The notes under the pieces are model-generated. The model was not told the DNA's origin. It worked only from the letters and a program-made list of their open reading frames with translations, and made no database searches. This document shows, piece after piece, positions 8,043 to 52,955 of a DNA stretch of 64,000 nt. The position numbers and the translations under genes are program-made. The stretch comes from Botryllus schlosseri. Lineage: Eukaryota. The DNA is taken from contig CM119371.1 of NCBI GenBank assembly GCA_051294905.1, positions 4,776,001-4,840,000 of the forward strand, in the 5' to 3' direction. The number at the start of each line of letters is the position of its first letter. The first letter of the stretch is position 1.

Positions 8043-9164
8043 CTAATTTTTGATACCAGCATGCATCTTAATATGTTCTTTGAGGTAGCCCGACCGAGTG
8101 AATGCTTTACCACACATATCACACATATGATTTTTGATCCCAGCATGCATATCCATATGACGCTTGAGGGTACCCTTCTCAGTGAATGCTTTACCACACA
8201 TAGCACATGTATGATTTTTTATTCCAGCATGCATATCCATATGAAGCTTGAGAGTACTCTTATGAGTGAATGCTTTACCACATATAGCACATTTATGATT
8301 TTTGATTCCAGCATGCATCTCCATATGTTCTTTTACGTGGCCCTTCTGAGCGAATGCTTTCCCACATATATCACACGCATGATTTTTGATCCCAGCATGC
8401 ATATCCATATGAAGCTTGAGGGTACCCTTCCCAGTGAATGATTTACCACACATAGCACATGTATGATTTTTTATTCCAGCATGCATATCCATATGAAGCT
8501 TGAGAGTACCCTTATGAGTGAATGCTTTACCACATATAGCACATTTATGATTTTTGATTCCAGCATGCTTATCCATATGTTCTTTTACGTGGCCCTTCTG
8601 AGTGAATACTTTACCACATATATCACAAACATGGTTTTTGATCCCAGCATGCATATCCATATGACGCTTGAGAGTACCCTTGTGAGTGAATGATCTACCA
8701 CATATAGCACATTTATGATTTTTGATCCCAGCATGCATATCCATATGACGCTTGAGTGTACCCTTGTGAGTGAATGATCTACCACATATAGCACATTTAT
8801 GATTTTTGATTCCAGCATGCATCTCCATATGCTCTTTTACGTGGCCCTTCTGAGTGAATGCTTTACCACATATATCACAAACATGATTTTTGATCGCAGC
8901 ATGCATCTCCATATGTTCTTTTACGTGGCCCTTCTGAGTGAATGCTTTACCACATATATCACAAACATGATTTTTGATCGCAGCATGCATCTCCAGATGT
9001 TCTTTTACGTGGCCCTTCTGAGTGAATGTTTTACCACATATATCACAAACATGATTTTTGATTCCAGCATGCTTATCCATGTGAAACTTGAGGGTACCCT
9101 TCTCAGTGAATGATTTCCCACACATATCACAAACATGATTGTTGATGCCAGCATGCATATCCAT
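8043..9164 (-). CDS. Residual open frame with 13 complete C2H2 fingers (HAGIKNH linkers)
   Basis: ORF track 8043..9170 (first ATG at 9164) has 28-aa/84-bp repeats C-x2-C-GK-x-F-x5-L/V-x2-H-x3-H. Whether it is expressed after the upstream hAT insertion is unknown. Confidence 0.5.
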   Translation of the reverse strand: MDMHAGINNHVCDMCGKSFTEKGTLKFHMDKHAGIKNHVCDICGKTFTQKGHVKEHLEMHAAIKNHVCDICGKAFTQKGHVKEHMEMHAAIKNHVCDICGKAFTQKGHVKEHMEMHAGIKNHKCAICGRSFTHKGTLKRHMDMHAGIKNHKCAICGRSFTHKGTLKRHMDMHAGIKNHVCDICGKVFTQKGHVKEHMDKHAGIKNHKCAICGKAFTHKGTLKLHMDMHAGIKNHTCAMCGKSFTGKGTLKLHMDMHAGIKNHACDICGKAFAQKGHVKEHMEMHAGIKNHKCAICGKAFTHKSTLKLHMDMHAGIKNHTCAMCGKAFTEKGTLKRHMDMHAGIKNHMCDMCGKAFTRSGYLKEHIKMHAGIKN

Positions 9165-9204
9165 ATGCAACTTCAGGGTACACTTCTGAGTGAATGCTTT
9201 ACCA

Positions 9205-10518
9205 CAGGGGTTCTCAACTTCCCTTGTATAACGGGCCGCATTTTAACGGCAAAAGAAGCTGCGGGCCGCAGAACGTAATTACCATGTATTTGTGGGCTAC
9301 TATGAAATTAAGGCTACTGTAGCCTATTTACCAGTCGTATGCGGGCCTTAACCCTTTCACGAAAGAACCGAATTCTCTGCTTCAAAGCGTGAACGAGCAA
9401 GTATAAAATTACGGTCACTTTTTCGTAACAGAGGCCATTTTCACATTGAGTTCTCAGTGATATAAGAAGAAGTCTGGCGTTCGGGTTCATTTCTGAGCAA
9501 ACCAATCAACCCTTCTCTTTTCATTCCATAGCGGGGGCCGCTTCCCCATTTGTCACATAAGTAAGCTTTGTCAAGTTGATGTTTTTCGCTGGTTACCCTC
9601 CCACGTTTGCCCAGCCAGCATTTCCTCTAGAAATATGCACCCAGATAATTAGCTGTGGAATGTCAGTGGAGTCGGTGAATTCGTCCAATGCTAGGCTAAA
9701 GTAATCTACGCGGAAACGTATTTCAGAACATGCGATAAAAGATCGACTGACATTGCTGTTACTCATTTGGTCACGGTTGAATCAGACAACTGTAGCTTCG
9801 AAATATGTCGGGTAATGTTTTCATTACTGTTAAGTTTCGGAAACAGCGAATACTCGCACAATTTTATTGAAATCACACCTTAGCTAGCAGATTTCTTGGG
9901 CTTAGCGATATTCCCAGCAATTTTGAACGATGTGTCTCCAACGTCGTCGGCAATTTTACAATGCTTCCAAATATGGATTGCTGGGCTTGACACCTAGCTG
10001 GCAACATTTTTCTAAGATCAGGTGATATGTATAACTCCAGACGAAACTCTCGTGGTATAATTTTAAGCTTCATCGCTTCAAAGCTTACGAAAACTGTTTT
10101 TCGACAAATATGACACATCGGATTTCCATTTATATCTGAGAAAGCAAATTCATTGTTCCACGCAGGGTTACAAACCAAGTGTTCGCCGTTTAATTTCCCA
10201 TTCCTAGTTCTTGTTTCTGATCAAACACTCTTTAATAAATTTACCACGTAGCGGGATTCTCTTTAACCAGAGTCCAACCGAATACAAATTCAAAACAATA
10301 ACAATCTAAACTTGAGCATATATCAAGAAACCAGAACACATCAAAAATGAGTAATCAAACGAAACGGAGACGGTGCGATAAGATAGCTAAGCAGCTAAAT
10401 TAATATGTAACAATATCGTGTCAGAAATAATTGCGTTCATGATGAAAGGTGTCGCGGGCCGCAAAATAAACCTCTGTGGGCCGCATGCGGCCCGCGGGCC
10501 GCGGGTTGAGAACCCCTG
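9205..10518 (-). mobile_element. hAT (Buster/Charlie-type) internally deleted transposon
   Basis: TIRs CAGGGGTTCTCAAC and a perfect 8-bp TSD CTTTACCA. Minus-strand transposase remnants: NPAWNNEFAFSDINGNPMCHIC, KLQLSDSTVT and YFSLALDEFTDSTDIPQLIIWV (first catalytic Asp region). A sister copy lies at 53204-54573. Confidence 0.93.
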
Positions 10519-30556: not shown

Positions 30557-31658
30557 GGCACTTCTTCGATGGCAGTCAGAGATCGGAAAGTGTTAACCAT
30601 GATCACCAATGAATGTTTTCCATGAACACGAACAAAAATTTATAAACGTCAAAATAAATTATTTTTGTGTGTCTTTGGAGAGACGGATATTAGGATTGGG
30701 GTGGGGGGTATTAGGGTGGGGGAAAGGGAGATTGGAGGTGGATTAGGGTCAAAGTTGGGGTTAGGTATCCCAAGATCAGGGTTGGGGGATGTTAGGGAAG
30801 GGGGATATTAGGGTGGGGGAAAGGGGGATTGGAGGTGGGTTTGGGTATCCCAAGATTAGGGTTGGAGTATTAGGGTGGGGTTGGGGGGATATTAGGGTTG
30901 CAGGAGGGGGGATATTAGGGTTGTAGGAAGGGGGATATTGGGGTTAGGGGGATATTAGGGTTGCGGGAGGGGGGGTATTAGGGTTGTGGGACGGGGGATA
31001 TTAGGGATGGGGGAGGGGAGGTGGGTTAGGGACAAAGTTGGGGTTAGGGTATCCCAAGATTAGGGAAGGGTGATATTAGGGTTGGGGGAAGGGGATATTA
31101 GGGTTGGGGTAGAGGGGATTGCAGGTGGGTTAGGGTATCCCAATATTAGGGTTGGGGAAGGGGTATATTAGGGTTGAGGGAAAGGGAGATGGGTTAAACC
31201 CCGGTTAGGGGTAATCTAACCCCAACTTTGAACCTAATCCACCTCCAACCCCCCTTTCCCCCAACCCTAATATCCCCCTTTTCCCTAACCCTAATATCCC
31301 CCCTCCCCAACCGTAATATCCCCCTTCCCTAACCCTAATATCCCCTTCCCTAACACCCCCTACCCTAACCCTAATATCCTCCCTCCCGCAACCCTAACAT
31401 CTCCCAACCCTAATATCCCCCTCCCGCAACCTAATATCCCCCTCCCGCAACCCTAATACCCCCCTCCCACAACCCTAATTTCCCCCCTCCCACAACCCTA
31501 ATAACCCCCTCCCGCAACCCTAATATCCCCCCTAACCCTCTCCAAACGCAAAAACAATAATTTTGACGTTTATAAATGTTTATTCGTGTTCATGGAAAAC
31601 ATTCATTGGTGATCATGGTGAACACTTTCCGATCTCTGACTGCCATCGAAGAAGTGCC
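30557..31658. repeat. 1.1-kb palindrome with head-to-head telomere-like TTAGGG / CCCTAA tracts
   Basis: Outer ~120-bp inverted repeats (GGCACTTCTTCGATGGCAGTCAGAGATCGGAAAGTG...). G-rich gatattagggttggggg units at 30690-31210, then complementary C-rich units at 31215-31540. No TSD seen. Confidence 0.9.
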
Positions 31659-34049: not shown

Positions 34050-36896
34050 CAGTGGTTCTCAACCGGTGTGCCGCGGCACACTAGTGTGCCATTTACGTCT
34101 CGCAAGTGTGCCGCGAGCGATTTCTTCGGAATTTTAAAATTATGCGCAAAATAATTCGAGTCTATAGCAAACGATCAATAATCTAAATCGAACTTGATGT
34201 GAAGTTTGTAGATTTGCTGAATCAAAATTCATGTCATGCCCGCAATCAATAACCCCCTCGACTTCGCTTTACCCGACATATCGCGTGACTTGAAGGCTGA
34301 TTTAAGTTTTGCACAATACGTTGATTGATCGTAGAGATGGTGGCTCCTGTATCACAATGCGGTTTTCAAATCCTAATTGTCTCCCCAATCACTAGCGAGA
34401 AATGAACTGCCTTGGCATTGATGTTCGCGTTTACATATTTGAATTACAAACATGGCAATCTACATTGCGATTATCGTGCCGGCACTTCCGTTAAAATATT
34501 GGCTTGTAGCACTACCACAATGTTGTGTTACTGTCGACGAATACGAGAATTGACAAGTAAGGTAGATCAAAATATATCAGTCAGCAAACCTCTTCGCCGC
34601 TGAGGTTATAATCTTGGTTTGTTGGAAGTATAATTAAACTGCGGATGAATGCCAGTAGACCTATTGAGGTATGGCTATCGTATCCTCACGCATGATACAC
34701 GATCTGAGTGGAAATACATTGTATATCCTGGTCTATTTTTTTCCAAGGTTGTTTATTCGATTCCAAATACATGAAAATCACATCTACCCTCCCATATTCG
34801 TTAGCGGCGATCATTATTAACCTCTTTGACACAATGCGGCAGTGGGCAGACTTATTGTCAAACAAATCTTATGAAATAGTATCCAAGGGCAGCCCGTCTT
34901 GTTTGTTGTAATCAAGAAGGAACGATATTCTGGCCCGAGGAGAACGACGACTATATATCAATGCTAAGTAAGCTATATGAGGGACGCTATACGCACAAAA
35001 TTTTTCTTAGAGAAATATTAAAATGGAACAGTTTATTTCAAAAGAAAGAAAGTACAGAAACATTTTGCATTGACTGCAAGGGTGTTCAGTAGGGTTGTCC
35101 AAAATTTGGAAAATCTCAAAAAGTCTCCGTGATTGTGTCTCATTCTATAGATTATTGATAAAAAACAACAATTAGCCTGAAAGAAGCTTACAGGAAAGCC
35201 GTTAAGATTTCGACCAAAGCGTTTGAAAGTAGCTGCTCAAGAATGGGCGTGCCACTGACCATAGAACGGTGAGAAGACTAGTAATCAAATAACCACGGCT
35301 CTTGATTGGCTAATCGGATATGCTTCAATGACCACGGCAGCAGCAGCTTGCTGATGAGGTGTTCAAGAAGTCTGCTACCGGCGGGGATTCTGAGTGCGCA
35401 TTGTTAGTAATTTGGCAGGTGATGATTTAAGATTAATTCAGGACATGTTGAGGTACGAACTACATGATGAACAAACAACACCTGCTTCACAGAAGCTTTT
35501 ACAGCATGACTGCTTCATTGTGAAGGAATCGGCTGAAGCCTACATGTCGTGTTTCCATCGAGAGAAAGCAAAGGCGCTTATGCAAGTGTTAGCGAATTCA
35601 CTGTTTCAGTACGGATCCACCATCAGTGAATACAAATATATAACGCTTAACAATGACACTATACGCTGTGTGATCTTATTGGGCTGAAGCTGTAGTATAT
35701 AGGTGACGTTTTGAATGGTCTAGGGATCGGCGGAATCAGCCGGTTATGCTTGGCCCTTATCAGATGCTTACAACAAATTGAATGCACTTGTAGGCGTTGT
35801 TAAAGTCCTTCATGATAACGCAGAAAAGAGGTGGTAATGTACGCACACTCGCACAGGCTGTGCTGGATATGGTATGTCAAAGTCCTTATTGATCCCGCAG
35901 AAAAGAGGTGTAAAGCAAAGCACAGACTATGCTGCATATAGTATTCAGCATAGTTTGGATATCATATCCAGCATAGCCTGTGCTTACCTTAAACCTCTTT
36001 TCTGCAGTATCATTAAGGACTTAGACAACTCTTTTAAGTGAATTCAATTTGCTGTAAGTATAACTGCCAAGCATAACCGGCCGATTCAGTCGATCCCTAG
36101 AACCTTCAATACTTCACTATATACTACAACTTGGATCCAATAAGATCACACAAAGTATAGTGTCATTGTTAAGCTTTATATATTTGTATTCACTGATGGT
36201 GGATCCGTACAGAAACGGTGAATTCGCTCAACACTTGCATAAGCGCCTTTGCTTTCTCTCGATGAAAACACGACATGTAGGCTTCAGCCGTTTCTTTCAC
36301 AATGAAGCAGTCATGCTGTAAAAGCTTCTGTGAAGCAGGTGTTGTTTGTTCATCATGTATTTCGTACCTTAACATGTCCTGAATTAATCTTAAATCATCA
36401 CCTGCCAAACTACTAACAATGCGCACTCAGAATCCCAGCCGGTAGCAGACTTCTTGAACACCTGGTCAGCAAGCTGCTGCTGCCGTGGTCATTGAAGCAT
36501 AGCCGATTAGCCAATCAAGAGCCGCGGTTATTTGATTACTAGTCTTCTCGCCGTTCTATGGTCAGTGGCACGCCCATTCTTGAGCAGCTACTTTCAAACG
36601 CTTTGGTCGAAATCTTAACGGCTTTCCTGTAAGCTTCTTTCAGGCTAATTGTTGTTTTTTATCAATAATCTATAGAATGAGACACAATCACGGAGACTTT
36701 TTGAGATTTTCCTAATTTTGGACAACCCTAGTGTTCAGTGTTCACATTAGTCGGCCTTAAACTGGGTGCTAATAAGTATTCTGGTAGTTTGCAGATGCCG
36801 TAAGCCAAAAAAGTTCGGAACCACTATGATGGTGTGCCGCGAACCCTGTTCTATTTCCAAAGGGTGCCGCGAAGTAAAAAAGGTTGAGAACCACTG
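34050..36896. mobile_element. hAT (Charlie-like) non-autonomous element
   Basis: TIRs CAGTGGTTCTCAACC / GGTTGAGAACCACTG; perfect TSD GCATAATG. Confidence 0.92.
35090..36730. mobile_element. Fully palindromic TAGGG-ended hAT (hATm-like) element
   Basis: TAGGGTTGTCCAAAATT termini; perfect TSD GTGTTCAG. The two ~800-bp halves are reverse complements (ORF track 35394+ and 36426- give nearly the same peptide), with the centre near 35950. Confidence 0.93.
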
Positions 36897-39001
36897 GCAT
36901 AATGTAAGCACTTGATCCGTCTAACAAACAGAGATACGTCCCTATTAGATCGGTGGTTCTCAATCTTTTTGTCTTCGCGTATCCATTTTCAGATCGCAAC
37001 CAACCCCCGTGGACCCCTAATGCATAAGCAATTATGCATCTTTGGTGCCTTTTCTGTCTGCGAATCAGTTCAATTAGCTTGAAATAAATTTCAACTCGGA
37101 GCCTTCAAGGCGAGACAGTGGCATTTACGGATTTCATAAGAAATCTACAAAGATCACCGACAGGACTGAGCATGGTGATCCTGATCTTGAGAATTGGATG
37201 CAATTAGCTCGTGTGTAGAAAAATGCTCATTAAGTAGAGTTGTATATAAATAATATTCTGAATGATGAAGATCATGTGACATCAACAACTGTTATTGGTA
37301 TTGTAATTAATCATGTTTCATAAAACTCCGTTGTGTACGGCTGCTTGTCTGCATCTTCACCATGCCCGTGAAAAGTCGAGCATACTAGCATTAGACATGC
37401 ATTCATTTCGATAAGTGAGGTTTGAGTCGCGAAACGGTAATGTCACTCAGATTCGGGTAGTGCTCGTAAACGTTGAAGAACCACTGGTCTTCAAAAGATT
37501 GTCAAACACACACCTCTGTCGGCTAGTGCTATCGGAGCTGGCGGTTACCGCGACCAAGGTGATGGTCCCTACTCTGAACCAGCTATCCGTCCCTAATCGC
37601 CTGGCCGAACCGGGCTGATGGTGTCAAACTTGTTCCAGAATTGTTTTGAATCTGACATTCTGTCATCCCGGGCAATTGTTGAAGACAGAGTAAATTAACA
37701 GTTTGGTGTCTTAGAGCTGAAATCTATCGGACGATCGAGTTGAAACCTGAACGTCCCAAATATTCTATCCGCAGCCAATATCCGAAAGGGAATCTGAAAT
37801 GTAATTGTGATCTACTAAGTATGTGCAAAACATCTATGAAGAACTACTCGTCTGAATTGGCAGGTTGCCGATTGCCGGTTGCCGATCACAATGCCTAATA
37901 ATTCTACTAAACTGGTATTATTACCATATTTTTCCATGTATAATGGGCGAAATTTTATTGATTTTTTGCCATAAAATAGGGGGTGCGTATTAGACATGGG
38001 TACAGCAAGCCTTGAAAAAATATCCCTCGATCAAAAACTTGAAATCACACCTTTCTTAATGTTTGTTTCCAATCTCGCATCACCTCTAGCCATCGTGCCC
38101 TGTAATTCGTATTATAGAGTGTAACGCGTGCTGCAAAGTAGAGAAGCGTGTTGCCAATTAGCGAAAAGCGTGTTGCCATTTTACGAGAGTCGTCTGCAGA
38201 GCACACGATCTCTTGCTCTGCAGAGCACACGATCTCTTGCTGAGTATTATACATGGGTACTAGGGTTGTTCAAAATTTGGAAACTGTTTGGAATACCGCG
38301 TATCCATGGCTTATTCTGTAGATTATTGTTAAAAAACAATAATGGACCTGAAAGAAGCTCGCATGAAAGCCGGAAACGTTTGTCTAAATGTGTTTGAAAG
38401 TAGCCATCGGCGAGTGGGCGGGGCATCGATGAAGTGGGCGGGCAAACAGGAGTCAATAATCTTGATTGGCTGCAGCCGGTAATAATAAATTACTGATTGG
38501 CTGAAAGATCGACTTTGTGAACACTACCAGTAACGATTTCAATGTGCTGTTGTGAAGTCGTTTCTGTTGGTGGCATTGCAGACATGATCTATTGCCTATG
38601 TTAATGTTGTCATCGAGAGTCTATATACGACATTGCAACCCCATTAGTTAATAATATCTACCTGCAGAATGTCTATAACAGTGTTACAATGTATTGCACA
38701 GGTGCTCTCGTAGTTGAGATACGAATAAACTAGATGCATGCATCTTGCTGTCTTCGACCTTTCCAAAACTTACTGACAGTGAGTGAAACTTGAAAAATTT
38801 CCCACCTGTAGTCAACATCTCAGTAGTACTTGCTATGTCTAGTCGAAGTCTCACCAATAAACAAACGCATATTACACTTTTTATTCGCGATTGAATGAAG
38901 GCAAAAAGCACTATTTACAACAGACATCAAGAAAGTACGCTGCAGGATCAGTGTTGCATTGTCAGTCATAAGTTGCAGATTGCAGGCTTTTGATTAGAGT
39001 T

Positions 39002-39260
39002 GAGAGAGAGAGAGAGAGATGATATTCTTTTTCGCCTGCACCATCGAGATGCTTTGACGACGGACTTGCGATACGGCCGTGAGGTCATCTAGTCTGCGCA
39101 CCCGTTTTTTTTCTCCTCCATGCTATCCGTGATTGCTGAGCGCCTAGCAGGATAGCTGCGGATACCAATTTTCGAGTCTTTGGTATGACCCGGCCGGGGA
39201 TCGAACCCACGACCTACCGCTCGAGAAGCCGGACGCATAACCATTACACTATCTCTATCC
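39002..39260 (-). mobile_element. tRNA-derived SINE (Meta-domain-like core) with (TC)n tail
   Basis: Minus strand has A box TAGTGTAATGG and B box GGTTCGATCC, then GGGTCATACCAAAGACT..AAAATTGGTAT..CTGCTAGGCGCTCAGCA, and ends in (TC)n. The resemblance to the MetaSINE core is from memory. Confidence 0.85.
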
Positions 39261-39971
39261 TGCTGTCTCCAACTGTCTTCCTATGCTGTTCCACAGCTCG
39301 AAGCAGACTGTCTCTTTGTTGTTCATTGTCAGTCAAGATTGCAACATAGTATGTGCTTAGCTTTACACCTCGCTCTGTGGTATCATTAACGACTTTGACA
39401 GAATTGATGTTGGAGCTCATTCTGGTGAAGGAATCTGAACATCAACCAGTTGAGTTAGCCACGCCCCAGAGCATTCAAAATGATCAAATATGTATCATGA
39501 CTGTGGCCCCAAAAATCAGCCAAATTTGCAGTTAACGAGACCGGCCCCTTCTGAAACTTAAGTTATTACCAGCTGCATCACGACCGATGCTGGAAGGTAA
39601 CTAAAAAGTGAACTAAAAACAAATTGAAGCGATCCAGTAGTTCCACTTCTTCAGATTTGTAATGTAACTGATAAGCCCACAGGAACATCTTCTAAGCATA
39701 CAGAATTTGCCCGTCCATCTTGCATGGTGTGTTGCACCCGGTATGTGATGAATGATGTATATCTTCACTTGCATCAAGAAGAGCAAGAGAAATAGTCACA
39801 CATTGTCTGTAGTCATCCCGTGTGAAGAATCTTTTCTGGTCAGTAGTAGCTTGAAGCAACTGTCATTGCTGCTCGTTCTTTTAAAACATATAGGAATAGT
39901 CAGAGTCTTGAATTGCTGTTTTCTATCAAGACTGCACAAGCTCTTCTTAAGGTGGGCCTTCCATGTGATAA

Positions 39972-42900
39972 TAGGGTGGAGTGAAAAATGGAAAATTTTG
40001 AATTTCAAAACGGACACTTGATATGTGGTGCCAAATTTAAAAAAAAAAATTCTATAATAATTTTGGGCTCGTGCATCCTCTAGTGGTCGTGCAATTGCAT
40101 CGAACGAGCCAAAAATAGCTAATTTTGCTATATATTGATTACCGCTTATGCTAGAAAGCTGGTTTTGGGCTTAAAAGATGCTGAAGCAACAAGTTTCTAT
40201 CTCACTTTCTCAGAACTTTTGTCTTAAAAATGAACAGAAAAAAAGTTACAAGCAAATTTTTGATTTTTAGGCTGTTTTAGGTAAAATTAGGCACTGAAGC
40301 AGTGGCTATGATGCCAAAAGCTCCATATTAAAAGAACATAAACTGCAAATCCATATTGAAACACAAAAACATCAATTCTATATTGAAAAAAGATATATTT
40401 CGAATATGGATTCACTACCAGAGTATTAGTACCGTAAACCGGGGTAACTTTGGACTTTAAGGTAACTTTGGACACTAAGCAGTAAAAGATTTAAATGGTT
40501 ATTGACGGAAAAGGGTTGCCGCTGGATGTCCAATTCTTTTTCATGTGGCATCGGTGCCATAAGTAGTCTCAATAGAAGGTGGATTCATTTCAATACCAGA
40601 TAAACTTGACCCAACATTGATAAATTAATGGCGGGGGTTAATTTCATCAAAATTAATGGCCATTTAACTTCTTACAAGCAAACATAGATAACATGTGATT
40701 CGTAGATTGGAAACTTGGCAGCAGATACCTCTAAGCAGTCTTAATCCATGGCAAAAATCTCAGTGGGCTCACCCTCAGATCAATACAAGAAAATGTGATG
40801 TCCAAAGTAACCCCATCAAATTTTATCAGAACGGGGTAACTTTGGACAGTGGAAAATGTGATATTTAGAGCTCTGGAAAGTGGCTGCTTAATCTGTGTCA
40901 AAGTGTATGGTCAACTATATTCCTTATTACCGAACTGATGGCTTTTTAAAATGGAATGAGAAGGATAATAAATTAGAGTTTGCCAAAATATGAAAAAATG
41001 GGTAGGCAATGAGCTGAGAGATTGTAATCGGGTGTAAGCTACTTCAAAAACTTATCACATACTCATAAAGATGTGCCTGCTGAGTGCTGAATATGGGATA
41101 TCGTAAATTACGACAAATATATCCATCAGAGGAGATAGGAAAGGGAAAGTGTATCTTTCAAAGAAGAGTAATATATTTGAAATCGGCAATAAATCACATT
41201 AACATGTTCAACTTTCACTGTCGATTGCTGACACTGCCAGTGGGATATCCCTTACCACCATACGTTATTTATAAGTCCCAATTGGCGAAGGCATGAGGGA
41301 AAATTGAGATAAGAGGGCCCATTAGCCTTCATAAACGACCTAATTTTTTTTTTTTTGGGGGGGGGGGATTAGGTATAAATCATGCAATAGGTCTGACATA
41401 TACCATTTTGTTTCAGTTTTAGCCACTGCTCTCATCAACTCTTACCAAATAAGCCCCATTTACGAAGTTTCATAAACAATTGAGTGTAAAGGCATACAAA
41501 AAACTACATTGTCCAAAGTTACCCCACATGCAGGGATAACTTTGGACACGGATAATTTACAAAAATAAGGTACTTATTTATGACCATGAAGATTTTGGAT
41601 TAGGTAATTCTAATCTATGCTCCATGACCCCTAAAAAACACAAAACTTGCCTCCCCTACACCCCAGCATTTCTGAAATACGAAGCGGAATTGTTGAAAAT
41701 TGTCCAAAGTTACCCCGGTTTACGGTATGCACAAATTTTAAAATCTTGTTTCGTAATAAAATATTTTATCTGCTTTCGAGATTTCAGTTTTTGAGTGATC
41801 AGGCCATCTCTACGTTCAAATCCCTACACATGGGCAATGGGCATATGCTTCGGTCACCACTGTAACGTCTCTTTCCACTGCCTGGTTGTGCCAAGGATGA
41901 TTGATCCTTAATGGTGATGGCCTGAGATTTTCCAGCTCAAGATATGAAAAGCTTTTGATTGCTGGTGGATGTTCCGCATCTTTCAGATGCAAGCTGACAA
42001 TTTGGTGCGATGACTTGGCCGTGATGTTTATAATTGGGATTTTGAACAATCTGATTCTAGTGTCAACGCTGTTTTTAGGTTTCGGTTCATTAACATATCC
42101 TCATTCTAAGTCGCTAATTGGAATCTGATATTCTGTTTGATCTGCTCATAGTTATAGACTTGCAAGTCTTCTGAGGCCTTCATCATCATCACCGAGCATT
42201 CCCAGATGTGCAAAACATGCCTTTTGTTGTAGCAAGGATATTGCAAGGTTACGAATTGTGTATTAGAAAGCTTTTGTAACATGGGAAACTATGTTGCAGA
42301 AGTTTTTAACACCATCAACAATGGAATTGTGCCTTTTTATTTCAAACCATGACGGAAAATAAACCTCAATGCAGAATTGAGCAAGATAGTTCAGATTGCT
42401 TGATGGATGACTTTGTCGCACATAGAAACTCAAAATTCGGCATGTTCTATGTGGGACTGAGTCATCCCTAATTGTACCTTCTTATTTCAAACCATGACGG
42501 AAAATAAACCTCCATGCAGAATTGAGAAAGATAGTTCAGATTTCCTGATTTTTTGAGGTTCTATACATAGCATACATAGCCAGAGTCATCCATCAAGCAA
42601 TCTGAACTATCTTGCTTAATTCTGCATGAAGTTTTATTTTCCGTCATGGTTTGAAATAAAAAGGCACAATTCCATTGTTGATGGTGCTTAAAACTTGTGC
42701 AACATAGTTTCCCATATTACAAAGCTTTCTGATACACAAATTCGCAACCTTGCACTACCTTTGCTACAAGGAAAAGCATGTTTTGCACATCCGGATAATG
42801 TATTTTGGAAATGCTCAGTGATGATGATGAAGGCCTCGGAAGACTTGCAGATTACAACTATGAGCAGATCAAACAGAATACCAGATTCCAATTAGCGACT

Positions 42901-43754
42901 TTGAAGGAGGATATGTTAATGGAACGAAACCTAAAAACAACGTTGACACTAGAATCAGATTTTTTGAAATCCCAATCATAAACGTCAAGGCCAAATCATA
43001 CCACTAAATTGTCAACTTTAATCTAAAAGATATGGAACAGCCACCAGCAATCAAAAACTCACCATATCTCGAGATGGAAAATCCAAGGTCATCTCCGCAA
43101 ACATCCTTGGCGCAACCAGCCAGTGGAAAGAGACGTTTAAGTGGTGACCAAAGCATGTGCCCATGTGTCGGGATTTAAACGTAGAGATGACTCATCAGAG
43201 AAAAACTGAAGTCTCAAAAACAGATGAAATCTTTTAATACAAAACAAGGTTTCAAAGTTTGTGCAGACTAATACTCTGGTAGTGAAATCATCTTCAAAAT
43301 ATATATTTTTTCAATATGGAATTGATGGTTTTGTGTTTTCAATATGAATTAGCAATTTATGTGTTTCCAATACGGAGTTGTCAGTCATAAGAGCGATCAC
43401 TACACGCTTTTGGCCTCGTACCCTGCTTCAGTGCCTAATTTTACCGAAAAATGGTCTAAAAATAAATTAATCTGCTCGTAACTTTTTTTCTGTTCATTTT
43501 TAAGACAAAGTTCTGTGGAAGTGAGATAGAAACTTGTTGCTTCCGCATCTTTTAAGCCCAAAATCAGCTTTCTAGCGGAAGCGGTCATCAATATATAGCG
43601 AATTTAGCTATTTTTGGCTCGTTCGGTGAAATTGCACGACCACTAGAGGGTGCACAAGCCCAAAATTATAATAGAAATTATTTTTTTCAATTTGGCACCA
43701 CATATCAAGTGTCCGTTTTGAAATTCAAAATTTTCCATTTTTCACTCCACCCTA
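39972..43754. mobile_element. Palindromic TAGGGTG-ended hAT derivative made of two transposase 3' ends
   Basis: TIRs TAGGGTGGAGTGAAAAATGG. Each arm carries outward-reading C-terminal remnants (NLNYLAQFCIEVYFPSWFEIKRH.., FAHPDN, HNQAVER..VTEA). TGTGATAA occurs on both flanks but is offset on the right, so the TSD is imperfect. Confidence 0.88.
40432..41725 (+). mobile_element. pogo/Tigger-like deletion derivative
   Basis: TA TSD; TIRs CCGTAAACCGGGGTAACTTTGGAC; internal GGTAACTTTGGAC repeats; DDE_1-like remnant VGYPLPPYVIYKS. The empty site is visible in the opposite arm at ~43265. Confidence 0.88.
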
Positions 43755-44875
43755 ATTGTGATAACGCCATCTTTCGTGCAGGTTTTGAAGTGATCGTACC
43801 ACATGTGATTTCTGCATTGTTGCAATCCTCGCCATTTTCCACACTGTCATTACATCATCCACCACCACATTGCAAGTAGGGGTTGACTGAGGACAATGCT
43901 CTTTCAGATGCAGAAAACATCTCATTACTTCTCATATACTTGGTAATCTCGAGCCAGAGATGTAATCGCAAGTATATCCGACCTCACATAGTTGGTAATC
44001 TCGAGCCACAGATGCAATCGCACGTATATCCGACCAAGTACGGTACTGCTCAGACTTAGATCTTGTTCCTCGCTGTGGCATGTGTACAATCTTTCGCCGT
44101 TTTGCCTTTACCATGACTGCAATATTGTTGCTCCAAATCGTAAACTACTGCTATCGACTCTAAAGCAATCAAAGAACACGTGTTACTGTACTACTAATGA
44201 TTCATCAACCCACAACTCGCTTGAACAGAACCACAGCCGCTCCTAACAGTCTCGACCACAACAAAACAAACTTTCAATTTAGTAAAGCGAAGCACCCGAA
44301 TCCGAGTCAGCTGTTGCAGTAATCATTGAAGCTTAGCCGATTACCCAATCAAGAACCGCGCGTTCGTGATTGCCCGCCTTTTCGCAACTCTGCTGTCGGT
44401 GGCCCGCCCACTCTTCACCAACGACTTTCAAACGCATTTAGACAAATCTTACCGACTTTCCTGCGAGCTTCTTTCAGGCCCATTATTGTTTTTTAACAAT
44501 AATCTACAGAATAAGCCATGGATACGCAGTATTCCAAACATTTTCCAAATTTCGAACAACCCTAATGGGTACAGGCTTTTTCCCAGAATTTATACGGCAT
44601 TTTAAGGGTGCGTATTATACATGGGGGCGCACTTTATTCGGAGAATTACGGTAGATCATAAGTTCGTTATTCTTGGATATTGTTAATTATCACACTGCTA
44701 CGTTTTTGCTAATTCCTAATGTATTTCAGACTGGGTTGATATAATATAAGAATCATAATACTGTGTAATAGCTCATTCCAAGCTATCGTTGAATAATCGT
44801 TTTTAAGCAGATAGCAGCTGATGTATGATTCTTGAAGAAGTAAAGTAATAGGCCCTATACAGCTAATCCAGAAGA

Positions 44876-46060
44876 ATGAGAAGGAACATGTGCTGGATCT
44901 GTGAAAAGAGCTTCCATCGCAAAGACGGATTGAAAGCTCACTTGCGATTCCACCTTATAGATAGAAATACCGAATGTGAGATCTGCGGTAAAACCTTTGC
45001 TGCAATCACTATATTGAAAAAACATTTAATATCACACACTCCTTTGAATAATCATGAACACAAGGGCAATGGCAAAAAGTTTAATCCGATCCGTCACTTG
45101 AAAAGACATGCGGAAACACGTACTGCTCACCATGAAGTCAAAAACCACGACTGTGAGATCTGTGGAATGACGTTTGTGCAGGTTGGTGACCTGAAAACGC
45201 ATGGAAATATACATACTGGAAACTATGCATGTCAGATCTGCGGCAAAGCGTTTGCTCTCATCGGACACTTGAAAACACATGAGAATACACATACTGGAGT
45301 CAAAAAATATGAGTGTCAGATCTGCGGAAAAGTTTTTGCCCGGCTTGGTGACTTGAAAAGACATGAAAATACGCATACTGGAGTCAAAAACTATGAGTGT
45401 CAGATCTGCGGCAAAGCGTTTGCTAGGATCGGACACTTGAAAACACATGAGAATACACATACTGGAGTCAAAAAATATGAGTGTCAGATCTGCGGAAAAG
45501 TTTTTGCCCGGCTTGGTGACTTGAAAATACATGAAAATACGCATACTGGAGTCAAAAACTATGAGTGTCAGATCTGCGGCAAAGCGTTTGCTCGGATCGG
45601 ACACTTGAAAACACATGGGAATACACATACTGGAGTCAAAAACTATGCATGTCAGATTTGCGGAAAACCGTTTACCCAGCTTGGTGACTTGAAACGACAT
45701 GGAATTACACACACCGGAGTCAAAAAGTATGCATGTCAGATCTGCGGAAAAGCGTTTGCTCTGATCAAAGACTTGAAAACACATGAGAATACACATACCG
45801 GAGTCAAAAACTATGATTGTCAGATCTGTGGTAAAGCGTTTAGCATGCCTGGTAACTTGAAAACGCATACGCATACACATACCGGAGTCAAAAACTATGA
45901 GTGTCAGATCTGTGGTAAAGCGTTTACCCTGCCTGGTAACTTGAAAACGCATACGCATACACATACCGGAGTCAAAAATTATGAGTGCCAGACGTGCGGA
46001 AAAGCGTTTTCCCTGCTTGGTAACTTGAAAAGACATGGAAATACGCATACGGTAGAATAG
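44876..46060 (+). CDS. Tandem C2H2 zinc-finger protein (13 intact + 1 degenerate finger, HTGVKNY/KY linkers)
   Basis: Intact 394-aa ORF. Upstream branch/acceptor cctaat..tttcag| at 44715-44729; AATAAA at 46353 and 46488. An in-frame stop lies just before the ATG, so no N-terminal effector domain is in frame. Confidence 0.88.
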   Translation: MRRNMCWICEKSFHRKDGLKAHLRFHLIDRNTECEICGKTFAAITILKKHLISHTPLNNHEHKGNGKKFNPIRHLKRHAETRTAHHEVKNHDCEICGMTFVQVGDLKTHGNIHTGNYACQICGKAFALIGHLKTHENTHTGVKKYECQICGKVFARLGDLKRHENTHTGVKNYECQICGKAFARIGHLKTHENTHTGVKKYECQICGKVFARLGDLKIHENTHTGVKNYECQICGKAFARIGHLKTHGNTHTGVKNYACQICGKPFTQLGDLKRHGITHTGVKKYACQICGKAFALIKDLKTHENTHTGVKNYDCQICGKAFSMPGNLKTHTHTHTGVKNYECQICGKAFTLPGNLKTHTHTHTGVKNYECQTCGKAFSLLGNLKRHGNTHTVE

Positions 46061-47129: not shown

Positions 47130-47567
47130 GTCTAATATAAGATATGATGTTCTACCAGCTTTTTGGTAGTAGACGTGAAATGATACCCCTACGATTTGTG
47201 ATGCAGGTGATTAGCACATCATTGATCGCTATCCTTTGTGATGATGTGATTATAAACAGTCAGCCGCAACAAATATTATTTTTATTCTGTTTCGTTTTGA
47301 AATCTATTGAATATCTGATAAATTCTGTGTGTATTCCTGATAGGCTATACACTCGCTGGATCTTGTCAACAATTTCGTTCCTTCATAAGATTCTGTTTCA
47401 TTCAGACTATTTGTAATTCATACTGCTACAACACTGCACCACAGTGCTCCTTACCTTGTTTTGTTTGATGAAAGATTGAAGCTGCTACGACGAACTCATG
47501 AACCTTGTTTACTAAAGAGGCAAACTGAGGTAAATTGTGATATGAATAATCATTACGCATTCATTCA

Positions 47568-47654
47568 TTCAATGTTTACGTTCCTCAGAAACTGCCGAAA
47601 ACCGGCTCAACCGTGGCGCCCAGCATTTTGGGAAGCCAACTACAGAGTTTCAAC
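47568..47654 (+). pseudogene. Truncated PLK1-like pseudo-exon 'E'
   Basis: FNVYVPQKLPKTGSTVAPSILGSQLQSFN. The downstream intron is homologous to 57940-58290 and to 800-1160 (reverse). Confidence 0.65.
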
Positions 47655-48183
47655 TGAAAGTTTTTTCGTATGTCTTGGCAAAATCTAGTTCTTGATTAAT
47701 TCGATTCTGAATCGAGTATTACGTTTCAAGTAGCGTACTCGAGTTTCATTCATCAACACTAGAGCCCGACCGCTATCATATTGTTGAGCTGATAGCGACA
47801 AGTAGCACCTTCAATGATAACCACAAATATTCAGCCTATAGTGAAATAATATGGCAACTAGTTTGAGACATATTTCCAAACAACTTTGCTATACTTAGGT
47901 ATGAAATAAACGAGAAAGGATGCATCTCAACGCAAACAAGCAGAGACAGTCAGTAGCAATAGTAGCCTACCTCTACTTTTGCAGAATACTCAATAAGGTT
48001 TTGTCCCGCATTTTCACCCTTAGTAGTAGTCACTCAACGAAAAACCGTTATCATGATTCAGGACAAACGAATACACATGTTTTCTAGTTGATCTGCAACT
48101 AAAATATTTTTACATCCACAAGTAGAACTATAGAACTACTCACTTTTTAAAATCTGCAACTGAGTCAAGTATCTGAATTACAG

Positions 48184-48331
48184 GCATTGCTTCTGAAGTA
48201 GCATGAGAAAGACAAATGTGTCAAGAGATCGGTCTCCATCGAAATTTGAATCACAAGCACGTCGTTTGATTTCACGGATTGTTCCAAGACAGGATTTAGT
48301 CTGTATCGTTCTTGAGTTGTGTAAAAGAAGG
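48184..48331 (+). pseudogene. PLK1-like pseudo-exon 'A'
   Basis: cag|ALLLK*HEKDK/MCQEIGLHRNLNHKHVV*FHGLFQD/DLVCIVLELCKRR|gtaa. Confidence 0.88.
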
Positions 48332-48515
48332 GTAAAGGTATGTCCTTATTACAAATGTAATGTACCTCTAACTGTGCCGGTCGAAAATGCATTAGAACTG
48401 TAATGTTCATGACTAGCAGACTTGTACAACCAGATCATTATTGCTCTAGCTAAATATGATAAAATGCTTATAATGTAATTCTAATCTAATTAGTCAACTA
48501 TTTCTATATATATAT

Positions 48516-50822
48516 TAGGGTGGAGTGAAAATGACTTTTTTTTTCAAATCGAAAAAAGGGCTTCCTCAATCCTGACCAATGACCTAAAACTTCAATACAA
48601 AGTGACTTCAGGGTGTTGCCCCCATTTTCCAGCCGGCAACCCCCCAATTTCTGCGCGTGGGGGGGTAAAATGGCCCATCTCGGCAACCGCTGGTCGTAGA
48701 GTCATGATATATAGCTCAAAATCTGCGGAAGCATCATGTTTCTATCTGTCTTCAGAATAAAGTTTTCTCTATTGTGAAAACAAAATGAGTTATAGCCAAA
48801 AAGCGATATATACGCACATTTTTGTTGAAATTCAGCATTTATTCTGACGAATTGTGATCTGTCATCAGTTTTTTTGGAACTAAAAGTAACACACTGACAA
48901 TACCGAATATTGGGCCCATAATACAAATATATTCACAACACAGTCCTTTTAAAATCGGTTCATAACATCATAATGAAACACCCACATTTAACGGCTTATT
49001 GAAAATGCATTTTTGTGTCAAATTTTTTCATCAGTTTACGAGACCTAATTTTTTGGCAATTGAGAGGCCATCTCGTCTTTCAAATCCCGAAACTTGTGCT
49101 GATGCTTCTGTTGCGAGCTTTACATGTCGTTCCACTGTTTGATTGGGGCATGGATGAAACAAAATCAGAGGCTTCTCGCGGCATTCTTCCAACTCTGCAT
49201 CAGTTAAGTGCTAAATCGTTGGAGGAAGTTGTTGATAAGGCTCAATATCAACCAACTCGTGGTATGCCTTGGCTTTGGGACACAGAATAAACGAATAGGA
49301 CCCCAGTTCGATTGGTTGGAACTGCTATGACTTTCAATGTCCACAAGTGAATTTTATTCAGCGGCATGTTTTCGAAACGCAAGCACCTTGGTCACACCCT
49401 TATTTCGTATGTCTTCATTATCATCTACCAGCATTGCAATCATAATCTTTTCGGGGTGTGCGAAATAACCGTTTCTTATCACCACATTCAAAGCAATTTT
49501 CCGAACGTTTCGGTCAGAAAAATTCAAAACCTGTTGAATCAAGTTGAAGATGTTTCTGGATCCATGTGTTATATGTTTGTTTCGCTTGATCTCAAACCAA
49601 GTCGGAAAATATACTTCAAGGCAAAAACGAACCAGAATCTCCAGGTTCAAGGGCGGTTCATCAACTCTTACATAATACCGTAAAACTCTGCACTGCATCC
49701 TAAAGTTAGCCATCTTGAATGCGCAACTGCTCCAACCTCCAAGTAAGCCAGATCATCATCAGCATTTCCTTGAATAATTGCCCAGCACATTTATAAGCAT
49801 ATAACTGGTCCTTACTCAAGTCACTAACAATTTCCAATGGGAGCTTTGGAAAGGCCATAAGTGGTGGCGAGAGCTTTTTGAATTGAGTAACTGGCCAACA
49901 AGATACACTTCCACGTAGTTTTGTTCCAATTGGGTGTGACCAAGGTGCTGGCGATTCGAAAACATGCCGCTGAACAAAATTCACTTCTGGACATTGAGAG
50001 TCATAGCAATTCCAACCAATTGAACTGCGGTTCTGTTCGTTTATTCTGTGTCCCAAACTTGAACTTGGAAGCAAAGGCGTATGAGTTGGTTGATATTGAA
50101 CCCTATATCAACAACTTCCTCCAGCGATTGATCACTTAACTGATGCAGAGTTGGAAGAATGCCGCGAGAACCCTCTGATTTTGTTTCATCCATGCCCCAA
50201 TCAAACAGTGGAACGACATGTAAAGCATCAACAGACGCATCAGCACAAGTTTCGGGATTTCAAAGACGAGATGGCCTCATTCGCCGAAAAATTAAGTCTC
50301 GTAAACTGATGAAAAAACATGACAAAAGAATGCATTTTCAATAAGTCGTTAAATGTCAGTGTTTCATTATGATGTTCTGAACCGATTTTAAAAGGACTGT
50401 GTTGTGAATATATTTGTAATATGAGCCCAATATTCGGTATTGTCAGTGTGTTACTTTTCTTTTAAAAAAACTGATGACAGATCACAATTCGTCAGAATAA
50501 ATGCTGAATTTCAACAAAATGTGCATATATATTGTTTTTTGGCTATAACTCACTTTGTGTACACAATAGAGAAAACTTTCTTCAGAAGACAGATAGAAAC
50601 ATGATGCTTCCACAGATTTTGAGCTATATATCATGACTCTACGACCAGCGGTTGCCGAGATGGGCCATTTTATCCCCCCCACGCGCAGAAATTGGGGGGT
50701 TGCCGGCTGGAAAATGGGGGCAACACCCTGAAGTCACTTTTTATTGAAGTTTTAGGTCCTTTGTCAGGATTGAGGGAGCCCTTTTTTCGATTTGAAAAAA
50801 AAGTCATTTTTACTCCACCCTA
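48516..50822. mobile_element. Palindromic TAGGGTG-ended hAT derivative made of two transposase 3' ends
   Basis: TSD ATATATAT; arms 48516-49400 and 49932-50822. The minus strand carries DLSKDQ..HSRWLT..VYFPTWFEIK..NGYFAHPE..IR, and the C-terminal Q.VERHVK..T.ASAQVSGF.RRDG is present in both arms. Confidence 0.92.
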
Positions 50823-51039
50823 ATATATATAGTGTGAAACAAGTCAAGATTGGTGAACAGTCATTTACTATTCTCGTGCTTATGATAATCAAGTCCGATT
50901 TGATATGAACTGAACTTGATTTCTTTTCCAACTAGGTATTGTGATTCTAATCTAATTTGGAAAAATATGTTTCACATAATTCAAATTCTAATCTAGTTTG
51001 GATAATGTGATCATTTTTTTGTGAAGCAACTGCGATCAC

Positions 51040-51520
51040 TAGGGCTGTGCACAATAATTTGATGACTCAAATCTGAATCGAGTATCAATTCTAATCATTT
51101 GAGTCGAATGGTAGGAAATGATTGTTTCGAGTACTGACAATATACGCTCGATGCCACCAAAGGGAAAAATTATATTAACAATTAGCTGAACTGAACCAAT
51201 GGGAATTATACTTTCGATAATATTTCTCACCGTGAAAAGCTGTAAACCTCGATTGGTCGTATCGCAGCATACGAAACATGTAGTACAAAGCTACTCACGT
51301 TACTGAAAATGACATTTCTGCGAAGTGGGGACCAACCTAAAGCATTGTCCCATAGTAAGATGAAATAGCTATGGTCATAAAGTGCAAAATAATCTTTATG
51401 ACGTGACTAGAACCGGCATTATATTCCTTGTGGTGTTGCTGTGACGTTAACATGAGTGACTCAAACTCATTATTCGATTCAGAATCAAATCACTCACATA
51501 CTCTATTTTAGCCAGCCCTG
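51040..51520. repeat. Old TAGGGCTG-ended MITE-like module repeated in PLK introns
   Basis: Homologous segments at ~2340-2875, 54610-54910, 56410-56837, 60050-60420, 61290-61500 and 62490-62868, sharing aaacctcgattggtcgtatc..tactggaaatgacat. Confidence 0.6.
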
Positions 51521-51710
51521 TTTATTTACACGTTCATTATCAAAAAGCAAGTATTAAATGAAGTTTATAGTTTGGAAGGTTCACCAGTCTGCAAAAACTG
51601 TTGTCCAATTTGACCGTCCCTCTAACTCAGAAAGGTTGAGAATTACTGTCCAACAAATAATATTGTTTTTGTCATTCCAGTAGACCAGCTACCTTATTAT
51701 TTGTTGTCAG

Positions 51711-51809
51711 TCGCTGATGAAAACTACAAAAGAAGATGCGCCATCACAGAACCAGAGACTTGGTGTTGTTTGGTTTCGTGATTGTAAAATCATTCATAGA
51801 GATATCAAG
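51711..51809 (+). pseudogene. PLK1-like pseudo-exon 'B' (internal deletion)
   Basis: cag|SLMK/YKRRCAITEPET..DCKIIHRDIK|gtaac. Confidence 0.85.
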
Positions 51810-52955
51810 GTAACATTGTATGCAGTAGTGCATTCGTAAATAATCTTCGAGAATGATGTCAGAACCAGAGCCGACCGATGATTGGTTTGCTAATTTTGGG
51901 ATAAAACTATGCACCTTATGTACCACTAACGTAAAATGATTGATGGCGGTACAAGCTCTCGAAAGTGGACTTGTACAAACTACTGGATTTTCAACATGCA
52001 CAACAAGAATTAGAATTGCTCACTTTTCCTAATTCTCTACTTGAACCAAGGACCATTGAAAATCTGCTACCAACTAACTAATGCATAACTCATTAATGAT
52101 TATTTCGTTACTAAATTACAAATGAGCTGAGAAATATCGGGGATAGAATTGGCATCTCAAATTGACGGGGTTTCGAGCTCAAAACGGGGGTGGTTTCGAC
52201 CAACCCTGCCTATACTACTTTAGGGCTGGATGACACTGAGTTAGGGCTGCAATGATTCGAGTCATGACTCGACTCGACCCAAACTCAAGTCACACTTATT
52301 TGGTGACTCGACCTAACTCGAGTCATATGACTCAAGACCAGGACTATCACTGTAGCTTCGAAGAATAGTAAAGTCACCACATGATTGGTATTTTGTATAT
52401 CAGTCCTGATACTGGAAAAAAGGGCCAGAAACTGTTAAACTGAGGAAATTAACGATATTATGAATGCGAGCCATTCTATATCACTCGAAGAGAATTGGAA
52501 AAAGTATATTGTACTGATAACTGAACAGTGAACATAATGACTTGCACTCGTACTCAGTTTTCTACTCGCCAACTTGAACTCGGACTTGACTCGATGGTGA
52601 ATTGAAAATGACTCGACTTGATTCGAGTGAAGACTATAAATGTGAGATTGACTTGTGACTAGGTTACAACCCTGCTCTGAGCTAGCAAAGGCTGCAAAAA
52701 TATCATGCAACAGAACACCGGTATCATGACGACATACATTTTCGAGTTGTCGGCAACTACATTTATTTGAATGAACCACTCGCTATTCAAGATCTGCAAT
52801 TACAACTGGAACAACTTGCTTTTAATTTTTTTACTATGCAACTAAAACCTGAACTCCTCAAAATGGCAGTAGTTTGTTGACCATCAACTACCTGGATTGG
52901 TAGTTTGTACAAATCAGTATACCTCAGTAATTGAATACGAAATTTGTATCGACAG

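Follow-up and report, generated by a model that had tools for sequence, protein, structure and literature searches.

An element built from two 3′ ends, with no 5′ end, was described in an earlier note at positions 48516-50822 of the window, that is, the whole 64-kb stretch of DNA that was analysed. The locus raises the question of how such an element was formed, whether it moved in this form, and whether it might supply a hairpin RNA against its own family, as the note proposed by likening it to Mu killer of maize.

Structure and family of the element

The element is an inverted repeat, whose two arms and unpaired loop are listed in Table 1. Alignment of one arm with the other gave 823 matches, 50 substitutions and 11 gaps, and both termini read TAGGGTGGAGT(G/A)AAAATGAC. 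Pairing of the arms breaks off at the gggtgtgaccaagg motif, at 49400 and 49932, where the junction had previously been placed. Compared by tblastn with homologs of 756-760 aa, the minus strand encodes transposase residues ~438-755, unbroken from 49931 to 49002, through the loop and into the left arm, and the plus strand encodes residues ~613-755 from 49932 to 50338, the C-terminus pointing outward on each strand. No residue upstream of ~438 was found in the element with a profile of 121 homologs, which bears out the claim that it has no 5′ end. The description as the last ~1.4 kb of a transposase gene plus an inverted copy of ~890 bp holds for the two-3′-end build, but the 1.4 kb is the end of the transposon rather than of the gene: this collinear part consists of ~935 bp of coding sequence and a 3′ tail of 480 bp, with ~410 bp of coding sequence per arm. 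The element's 5′ part is replaced by its inverted 3′ part, which is the type of rearrangement that defines Rpmar17 and Rpmar49.

The DGRKD (307), DGT (380) and CLLH (409) motifs of the homolog are absent from the remnant, and the ERHVK motif (713) is retained. Because the first three motifs are missing, the element is unable to encode an active enzyme; the first two catalytic aspartates are lost. An autonomous element has an intact transposase with all catalytic residues, and 48516-50822 has residues ~438-755 only, with frameshifts.

Elements of the hATm family are defined by TAGGGTG...CACCCTA ends and TSDs of 8-9 bp (PMC6004678); for Hydra hATm-3, the TSD is given as TATATATA (PMC8721813). 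The termini 5′-TAGGGTG ... CACCCTA-3′ are present on 48516-50822, and the loci of unnamed transposase homologs also bear hATm-type ends. A homolog search with the longest frame of the loop gave, out of 83 candidates, 5 proteins, which include three with lengths of 756-760 aa; hAT-type motifs are conserved in the homologs (D307, D380 and CLLH, of the form CxxH). A first fold, computed from 5 sequences, was discarded (pLDDT 41.5); the model of homolog P0002, computed from 121 sequences, reached a pLDDT of 89.5. In a search of PDB structures, this model matched best Hermes (4d1q, E 8.8e-5, TMq 0.31, 11% identity), then ISCth4 and the P element. The predicted fold of P0002 is that of the hAT superfamily, a statement that concerns the homolog as distinct from the remnant itself. 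The Pfam hAT domain PF05699, reported for hATm-6 (PMC6004678), gave no match in 6 window fragments or 5 homologs, and a PDB sequence search gave no match below E 0.25. On the basis of its termini, its motifs and the fold of the homolog, 48516-50822 is assigned to the hATm family of hAT, with which its target site would be compatible. The transposase family P0002-P0154 is large, with 11,090 representatives at a cutoff of E 0.001, and none of 5 scanned members was matched by a Pfam model.

The direct repeat that flanks the element, ATATATAT, had been called a perfect 8-bp TSD. The match is indeed 8/8 at 8 bp, yet 6/6 at 6 bp and 9/10 at 10 bp also fit, and because a TA run surrounds the site, the sequence leaves the length of the duplication unfixed. 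The flanks (47500-48515 and 50823-52000) are the halves of one older dispersed repeat, collinear across the site with other copies in the window, and therefore both ends of the element lie at a single insertion site. An empty-site alignment to copies of the host repeat (~60-65% alike) was likewise collinear, with similar scores whether or not 8 bp were removed, and did not fix the TSD length either. Many copies of this host repeat, 65-80% alike, are found throughout the window.

Since palindromic chimeras are a known artefact of amplified or long-read libraries, the inverted repeat might be a fold-back chimera of the assembly. The 50 substitutions and 11 gaps between the arms, and the collinear flanks bounded by a direct repeat, speak against this, and an independent contig, from run X7, spans the junction, which refutes it in practice. 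We regard the chance of an artefact as negligible.

Table 1. Positions of the element, its parts, its flanking repeat and a second 3′/3′ element in the window
Feature	Position	Strand	Description
Presumed TSD, left copy	48508..48515	+	ATATATAT, 8/8, inside TA run
Left arm	48516..49399	-	884 bp, collinear with loop; hATm 3′ end with TAGGGTG terminus and non-coding tail of 480 bp; residues ~613-755 outward
Own long TIR part (approximate)	48516..48800		~250-300 bp, judged from relatives
Decayed hATm transposase remnant	48996..49931	-	residues ~438-755 and stop 48996-48998; frameshifts and a stop; from tblastn, profile and motif positions
Unpaired loop	49400..49931	-	532 bp; transposase residues ~438-612
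Rearrangement junction	49931..49933		loop end joined to inverted arm; spanned by X7 record 19
Right arm	49932..50822	+	891 bp; inverted 3′ end replacing 5′ part; residues ~613-755; stop 50342-50344; 478-bp tail; terminus CACCCTA
Presumed TSD, right copy	50823..50830	+	ATATATAT
Second, independent 3′/3′ hATm element	39972..43754		residues 515-755 on minus strand (42442 to 41740), 523-755 on plus strand (42578 to 43253)

Ends of relatives and origin of the inverted arm

A metagenome scan for loci encoding relatives of the transposase, selected on central motifs, gave 79 loci, 61 of them distinct after merging. Twelve were picked by eye as possibly complete; L009, L010, L026, L043 and L054 were dropped, their ends being unpaired, and the other seven (six distinct) were re-tested. 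TIRs measured ~290 bp at 87% in L006, 250 bp at 86% in L011/L037, and 320 bp at 91% in L020, which has a TSD of 8/8. Those of the TAGGGTGGGCC group (L004, L048, L068) measured ~130-160 bp at 75-80%, with TSD matches of 7/8 for L048 and 7/9 for L004 and L068. The long TIRs, of 250-320 bp, are found in relatives whose ends begin like those of 48516-50822. The terminal 257 bp of the latter match both ends of L006 about equally (66-68%) and, with the 5′ end of L033 included, at 66-69%. Read depth over its terminal 250 bp is 1.6-5.3 times that of the arm-coding part, which fits long TIRs plus short derivatives. Judging from these relatives, ~67-70% like the element, the two ends of such transposons appear to be nearly equivalent, and a 3′/3′ element would keep a terminus that resembles the normal left end. 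Each arm of 48516-50822 probably consists of ~300 bp of ordinary TIR and an extension of ~590 bp.

Alternatively, an autonomous parent might itself have TIRs of ~890 bp that include the transposase C-terminus, as the earlier note had allowed, and 48516-50822 would then be a plain internal deletion. Long hATm TIRs exist, of 417 and 575 bp in two autonomous hATm-6 members (PMC6004678), and ORF ends have been recruited into TIRs by Galileo copies (PMC4168063). However, none of the seven re-tested relatives (six distinct) has a TIR that reaches coding sequence: end-to-end similarity stops at 130-320 bp, and the TIRs of those with ends like our element's stop at 250-320 bp. Transposase on both strands was found at 0 of the 79 related loci (61 distinct), a count biased against such loci by the breaking of short-read contigs at palindromes and by the selection on central motifs. 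The extent of the arms also differs between two elements of the window (residue 613 versus ~520). A parent of this kind is thus very improbable.

The second of these elements, 39972-43754, has arms that differ at 132 of 1172 aligned bases, a multiply folded centre (42405-42580) and an imperfect target repeat (ATGTGATAA / ATTGTGATAA). Its first 16 bases are identical to those of 48516-50822, but the DNA further in is unrelated (59-68% in patches), and the element represents a different hATm family. Both of the window elements that have C-terminal hATm coding sequence (2/2) are 3′/3′. Element 39972-43754 interrupts an outer hATm-type element, 38261-44564, which has TAGGGTTGTTC ends, a 169-bp TIR at 88% and ATGGGTAC as TSD, and holds an N-terminal remnant of transposase on the minus strand (43988 to 43761). 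A fully palindromic 1.6-kb element at 35090-36730, with arms 89% alike and an 8/8 TSD (GTGTTCAG), matches 255 bp of the 5′ end of 38261-44564 and 165 bp of the 3′ end; because the match to the 5′ end is the longer one, this element may be a 5′/5′ foldback form. No homolog was found for the ORF in this palindrome.

Other repeats were seen in the window. Inside the left arm of 39972-43754 lies an insertion of ~1.3 kb (~40430-41724) with inverted ends (TACCGTAAACCGGGGTAACTTTGGAC). The segment 17029-18517 is a 1.5-kb palindrome, 81% self-complementary, with no obvious TSD, and 30557-31658 is an inverted-repeat element whose arms contain G-rich / C-rich tandem units of ~22 bp with TTAGGG-like words. 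Two arrays have a period of 84 bp, with 16 units on the minus strand at 8043-9242 and 11 units on the plus strand at 44867-46060; we take both to be of the C2H2-type zinc-finger kind.

At the end of the loop, relatives encode Gly-Pro-Ile-Gly, and the CC of the Pro codon in the window doubles as the final CC of the inverted arm. Compared with these relatives, ~70% alike, the junction at 49931-49933 would contain at least 2 bp of microhomology. The following course of events may be proposed. The starting point would be an hATm subgroup with nearly identical ends of ~250-300 bp. In the repair of a break or of an excision gap, the strand entering the 5′ TIR would be copied from the 3′ TIR, 891 bp inward, after which microhomology of 2-3 bp would let it join what was left of the 3′ part. 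The terminal sequence of the family being complete at both ends, the transposase of an intact element could move the 3′/3′ form, and a multi-copy sublineage would result. The copy at 48516-50822 would have landed in the TA run of an older repeat and undergone neutral decay, each arm separately. Repair from the opposite TIR, which has been proposed for Galileo (PMC3573991), appears to be the best explanation of the structure.

Another route, also compatible with mobility, would be a deletion between neighbouring inverted copies, or alternative transposition, followed by a jump to the present site. Deletion between close copies is the route proposed for Rpmar49 and Rpmar17 (PMC4678618), and the nesting of hATm elements in one another within the window favours it. 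At the locus 48516-50822 itself, such a deletion is excluded by host flanks that are collinear across the site. Two further observations argue against a deletion between two copies: a minority allele at 50197 is common to both arms and suggests a single template, weakly since only one site is concerned, and the multiply folded centre of 39972-43754 resembles template switching. We hold this route to be quite unlikely as compared with repair from the opposite TIR.

Decay of the two arms was read from 17 right-arm differences among the best-supported rows of a table that has 314 further rows. The left arm has the pool base at 11 of these 17 sites, both arms share the difference at 3, and the remaining 3 are other cases. 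The arms mutated independently after insertion, with no sign of homogenisation. The terminal 300 bp diverged less (14/299) than the part further in (36/574), but no signal of selection was detected in the element by this comparison (P 0.36).

Probable mobility of the 3′/3′ form

The TSD had been taken as a sign that the element transposed in its 3′/3′ form. This argument fails, since rearrangement in place would leave the TSD of a copy intact and ATATATAT is part of a TA run. The TSD would date the arrival of whatever element landed at this site, and is no proof that the rearranged form moved. Rather than arriving as it is now, a full-length hATm element could have been inserted here, making the TSD, and have had its 5′ part overwritten later by its 3′ part, without ever moving again.

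The segment 49400-51800 (loop, right arm and right flank) was compared with contig sets X1, X5 and X7 and with RNA run X23, which are 4 of 24 runs. X1 and X5 are organism-A runs, and X7 is a separate run with a different organism label. Record 19 of X7 (depth 11.2) spans the junction, covering 49771-49974, and the junction therefore exists outside the assembly. Record 18 of X7 (depth 59.9, ~87% alike) matches 49922 to 49693 and has another 805 letters upstream, as expected of a parent-type copy.

Between record 19 and the window there are five differences, at 49817, 49824, 49826, 49836 and 49923. The window base is nearly private at 49817 and 49923 (0-6% of depth). At 49824, 49826 and 49836, it has a summed depth of 946 in X5 (versus 33 at 49923) and accounts for 83-92% of X1, and at these three sites record 19 has the base of record 18, the divergent, outgroup-like parent type. 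By parsimony, the simplest reading would be that the junction arose first, and that the sublineage bearing it then gained the alleles at 49824, 49826 and 49836 and multiplied. The three linked alleles might alternatively stem from gene conversion by a parent-type subfamily.

The summed depth of the arm-coding part relative to the loop was 2.33 in X1, 2.09 in X5 and 3.0 in X7 (medians 1.9 in X1 and 2.0 in X5), near the 2:1 expected for 3′/3′ copies; summed contig depth is not the same as copy number, and other deletion derivatives that keep the 3′ end would also raise this ratio. Among the pieces listed for X1, X5 and X7, no second copy was found with the 49931/49932 junction and different flanks. 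This last result fits an element that was rearranged in place, and so does the depth of the X7 junction contig, 11.2, which resembles that of nearby pieces (11.8 and 9.4) and could be that of an orthologous single copy; the TSD would survive such an event. Set against it, three of the sites that distinguish the X7 contig from the window are linked and, instead of being private, segregate in X1 and X5 at high depth, and the arm:loop depth is ~2 in both organism-A runs. Rearrangement in place is thus unlikely, though deserving to be kept in mind, and the element was probably mobile in its 3′/3′ form.

Such mobility would not be surprising, because the TIRs of 250-320 bp seen in relatives make both ends nearly equivalent. 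It is not general in hAT, since Hermes requires asymmetric ends (PMC10368747). The proposal that right-end/right-end elements are mobile in this lineage is therefore retained on other grounds than the TSD: the 3′/3′ form recurs, at 39972-43754, and the X7 alleles and the depth ratio make mobility likely. Taking origin and mobility together, we lean to the view that 48516-50822 is a non-autonomous hATm derivative, whose 5′ part was replaced by an inverted 3′ copy through repair, and which then became mobile and multi-copy. An element of this sort would behave like a large MITE or a foldback parasite, and a silencing role would be unneeded as an explanation.

Possible hairpin formation and comparison with known systems

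Inverted duplications silence Mu (PMC3440606) and Ac (bioRxiv 2020.01.07.897926) in maize. In Mu killer, the mudrA-side TIR and part of mudrA are present twice; the locus is transcribed, and its silencing phenotype led to its discovery (PMC3440606). With these precedents, 48516-50822 could be a locus of the same kind, from which read-through transcription, or a promoter within the symmetric TIR, would produce a hairpin, and then small RNAs silencing the autonomous transposase. A transcript would fold, as 49000-50340 taken as RNA forms one long stem (-741 kcal/mol), and the arms share 12 perfect runs of at least 21 bp, 472 bp in all. Two features of the element argue the other way: the 5′ region is absent from it, and the arms gather mismatches independently, with no sign of homogenisation.

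RNA was looked at in X23, raw reads representing ~6% of one bulk RNA run. Over 49400-51800, flank included, 909 reads were placed, of which 4 were at least 99% alike, and 98% continued in sequence unlike this segment. RNA depth in this ~6% of a run was 0/0 over 49805-49966, that is, none across the junction; it was at most 4 in the loop and ~0.2 at the right boundary, and over 50048-50533 it ranged from 12 to 37 in either mate direction. Because depth at the junction is zero and 4 of 909 reads are at least 99% alike, the signal over the arm comes from related copies. That such copies give RNA reads on the 3′ region in both mate directions would agree with a silencing locus, but the flank repeat also has equal coverage from the two mate directions, so that strand is unreadable here. 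A-to-I editing, which the earlier note had suggested as a check, was not visible as an excess of A>G plus T>C in X23: 40 of 142 changed sites in RNA, versus 41 of 168, 46 of 187 and 55 of 239 in DNA (one-sided P 0.27, 0.27 and 0.16).

The RNA result speaks weakly against a silencing locus, to which, all evidence considered, we give little credence. What stands of the Mu-killer-like hairpin is an inverted duplication able to fold, for which one run gave neither RNA depth at the junction nor an A>G/T>C excess, and the analogy with Mu killer is structural only. Also improbable, in our view, is a wider scenario in which the hATm families here routinely collapse into mobile foldbacks (3′/3′ in two, probably 5′/5′ in a third, in one 64-kb window) that outnumber their parents. 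With an inward promoter possible in the symmetric TIR, each copy would be a self-propagating source of hairpin, a mobile ‘killer’ whose spread would depend on the very transposase that it silences, and the family would be shut down as copies rise.

Mu killer and Ac killer resemble 48516-50822 in being inverted duplications of part of a transposase gene, from which a long hairpin is possible. They differ in being defined by transcription, small RNAs and dominant silencing, whereas 48516-50822 is likened to them by structure alone (PMC3440606; bioRxiv 2020.01.07.897926). Copies of this type, if shown to give rise to small RNAs, would amount to a Mu killer counterpart in an animal, and a mobile one.

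Closer parallels are found among transposons that have replaced one of their ends. In Rpmar49 and Rpmar17, mariner elements of Rhodnius prolixus, the 5′ part was replaced by the 3′ part and the product was then amplified by transposition; there are 13 independent copies of Rpmar49, and 227 rearranged copies were analysed for Rpmar17 (PMC4678618). Like our element, they have an inverted 3′ part with transposase homology at the 5′ side, long TIRs as a result, and no autonomy. They differ in belonging to Tc1/mariner and in size, ~0.9-1 kb with an arm of 221 bp in Rpmar49 (PMC4678618), as compared with an hATm element of 2.3 kb with arms of ~890 bp. Sublineages of Drosophila mariner MITEs also had one end replaced by the inverted other end, giving long TIRs, and were amplified, but in 7 of 7 the polarity is opposite, the 5′ part having taken the place of the 3′ part (PMC4161770). 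The extended-TIR (2RT) copies of Galileo in Drosophila mojavensis and D. willistoni share with 48516-50822 a long-TIR parent and the inverted recruitment of internal sequence (PMC3573991, PMC4168063), and in one Galileo copy, both TIRs recruited sequence from the end of the ORF, exceeding 500 bp (PMC4168063). Galileo differs by its superfamily (P), its 7-bp TSD and the internal tandem repeats of its TIRs (PMC3573991, PMC4168063).

Within hATm, hATm-6_RP and hATm-6_CV have the same TAGGGTG...CACCCTA ends and long TIRs as our element, and 8-9-bp TSDs, to which its presumed TSD would conform, whereas the published members are autonomous or short MITEs, with no 3′/3′ coding duplication described in the available part of that source (PMC6004678). 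The part available of PMC5490172 holds nothing on end replacement, and no report of 3′/3′ end replacement in hATm was found in a literature search that left aside Repbase and most subscription journals. End replacement being known in mariner and Galileo, the hATm case is a further instance of a known architecture. It extends this rearrangement to a little-studied family, in which long symmetric TIRs are suggested to make end replacement routine. Hermes, although of the same hAT superfamily and the best fold match of the P0002 model, has TIRs of 17 bp and dissimilar ends, and symmetrising them to LE/LE left no activity in cells (PMC10368747); the ends of hATm, by contrast, are nearly symmetric. 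Set beside this asymmetry-requiring enzyme, hATm transposases would lend themselves to testing how identical ends are paired by hAT enzymes.
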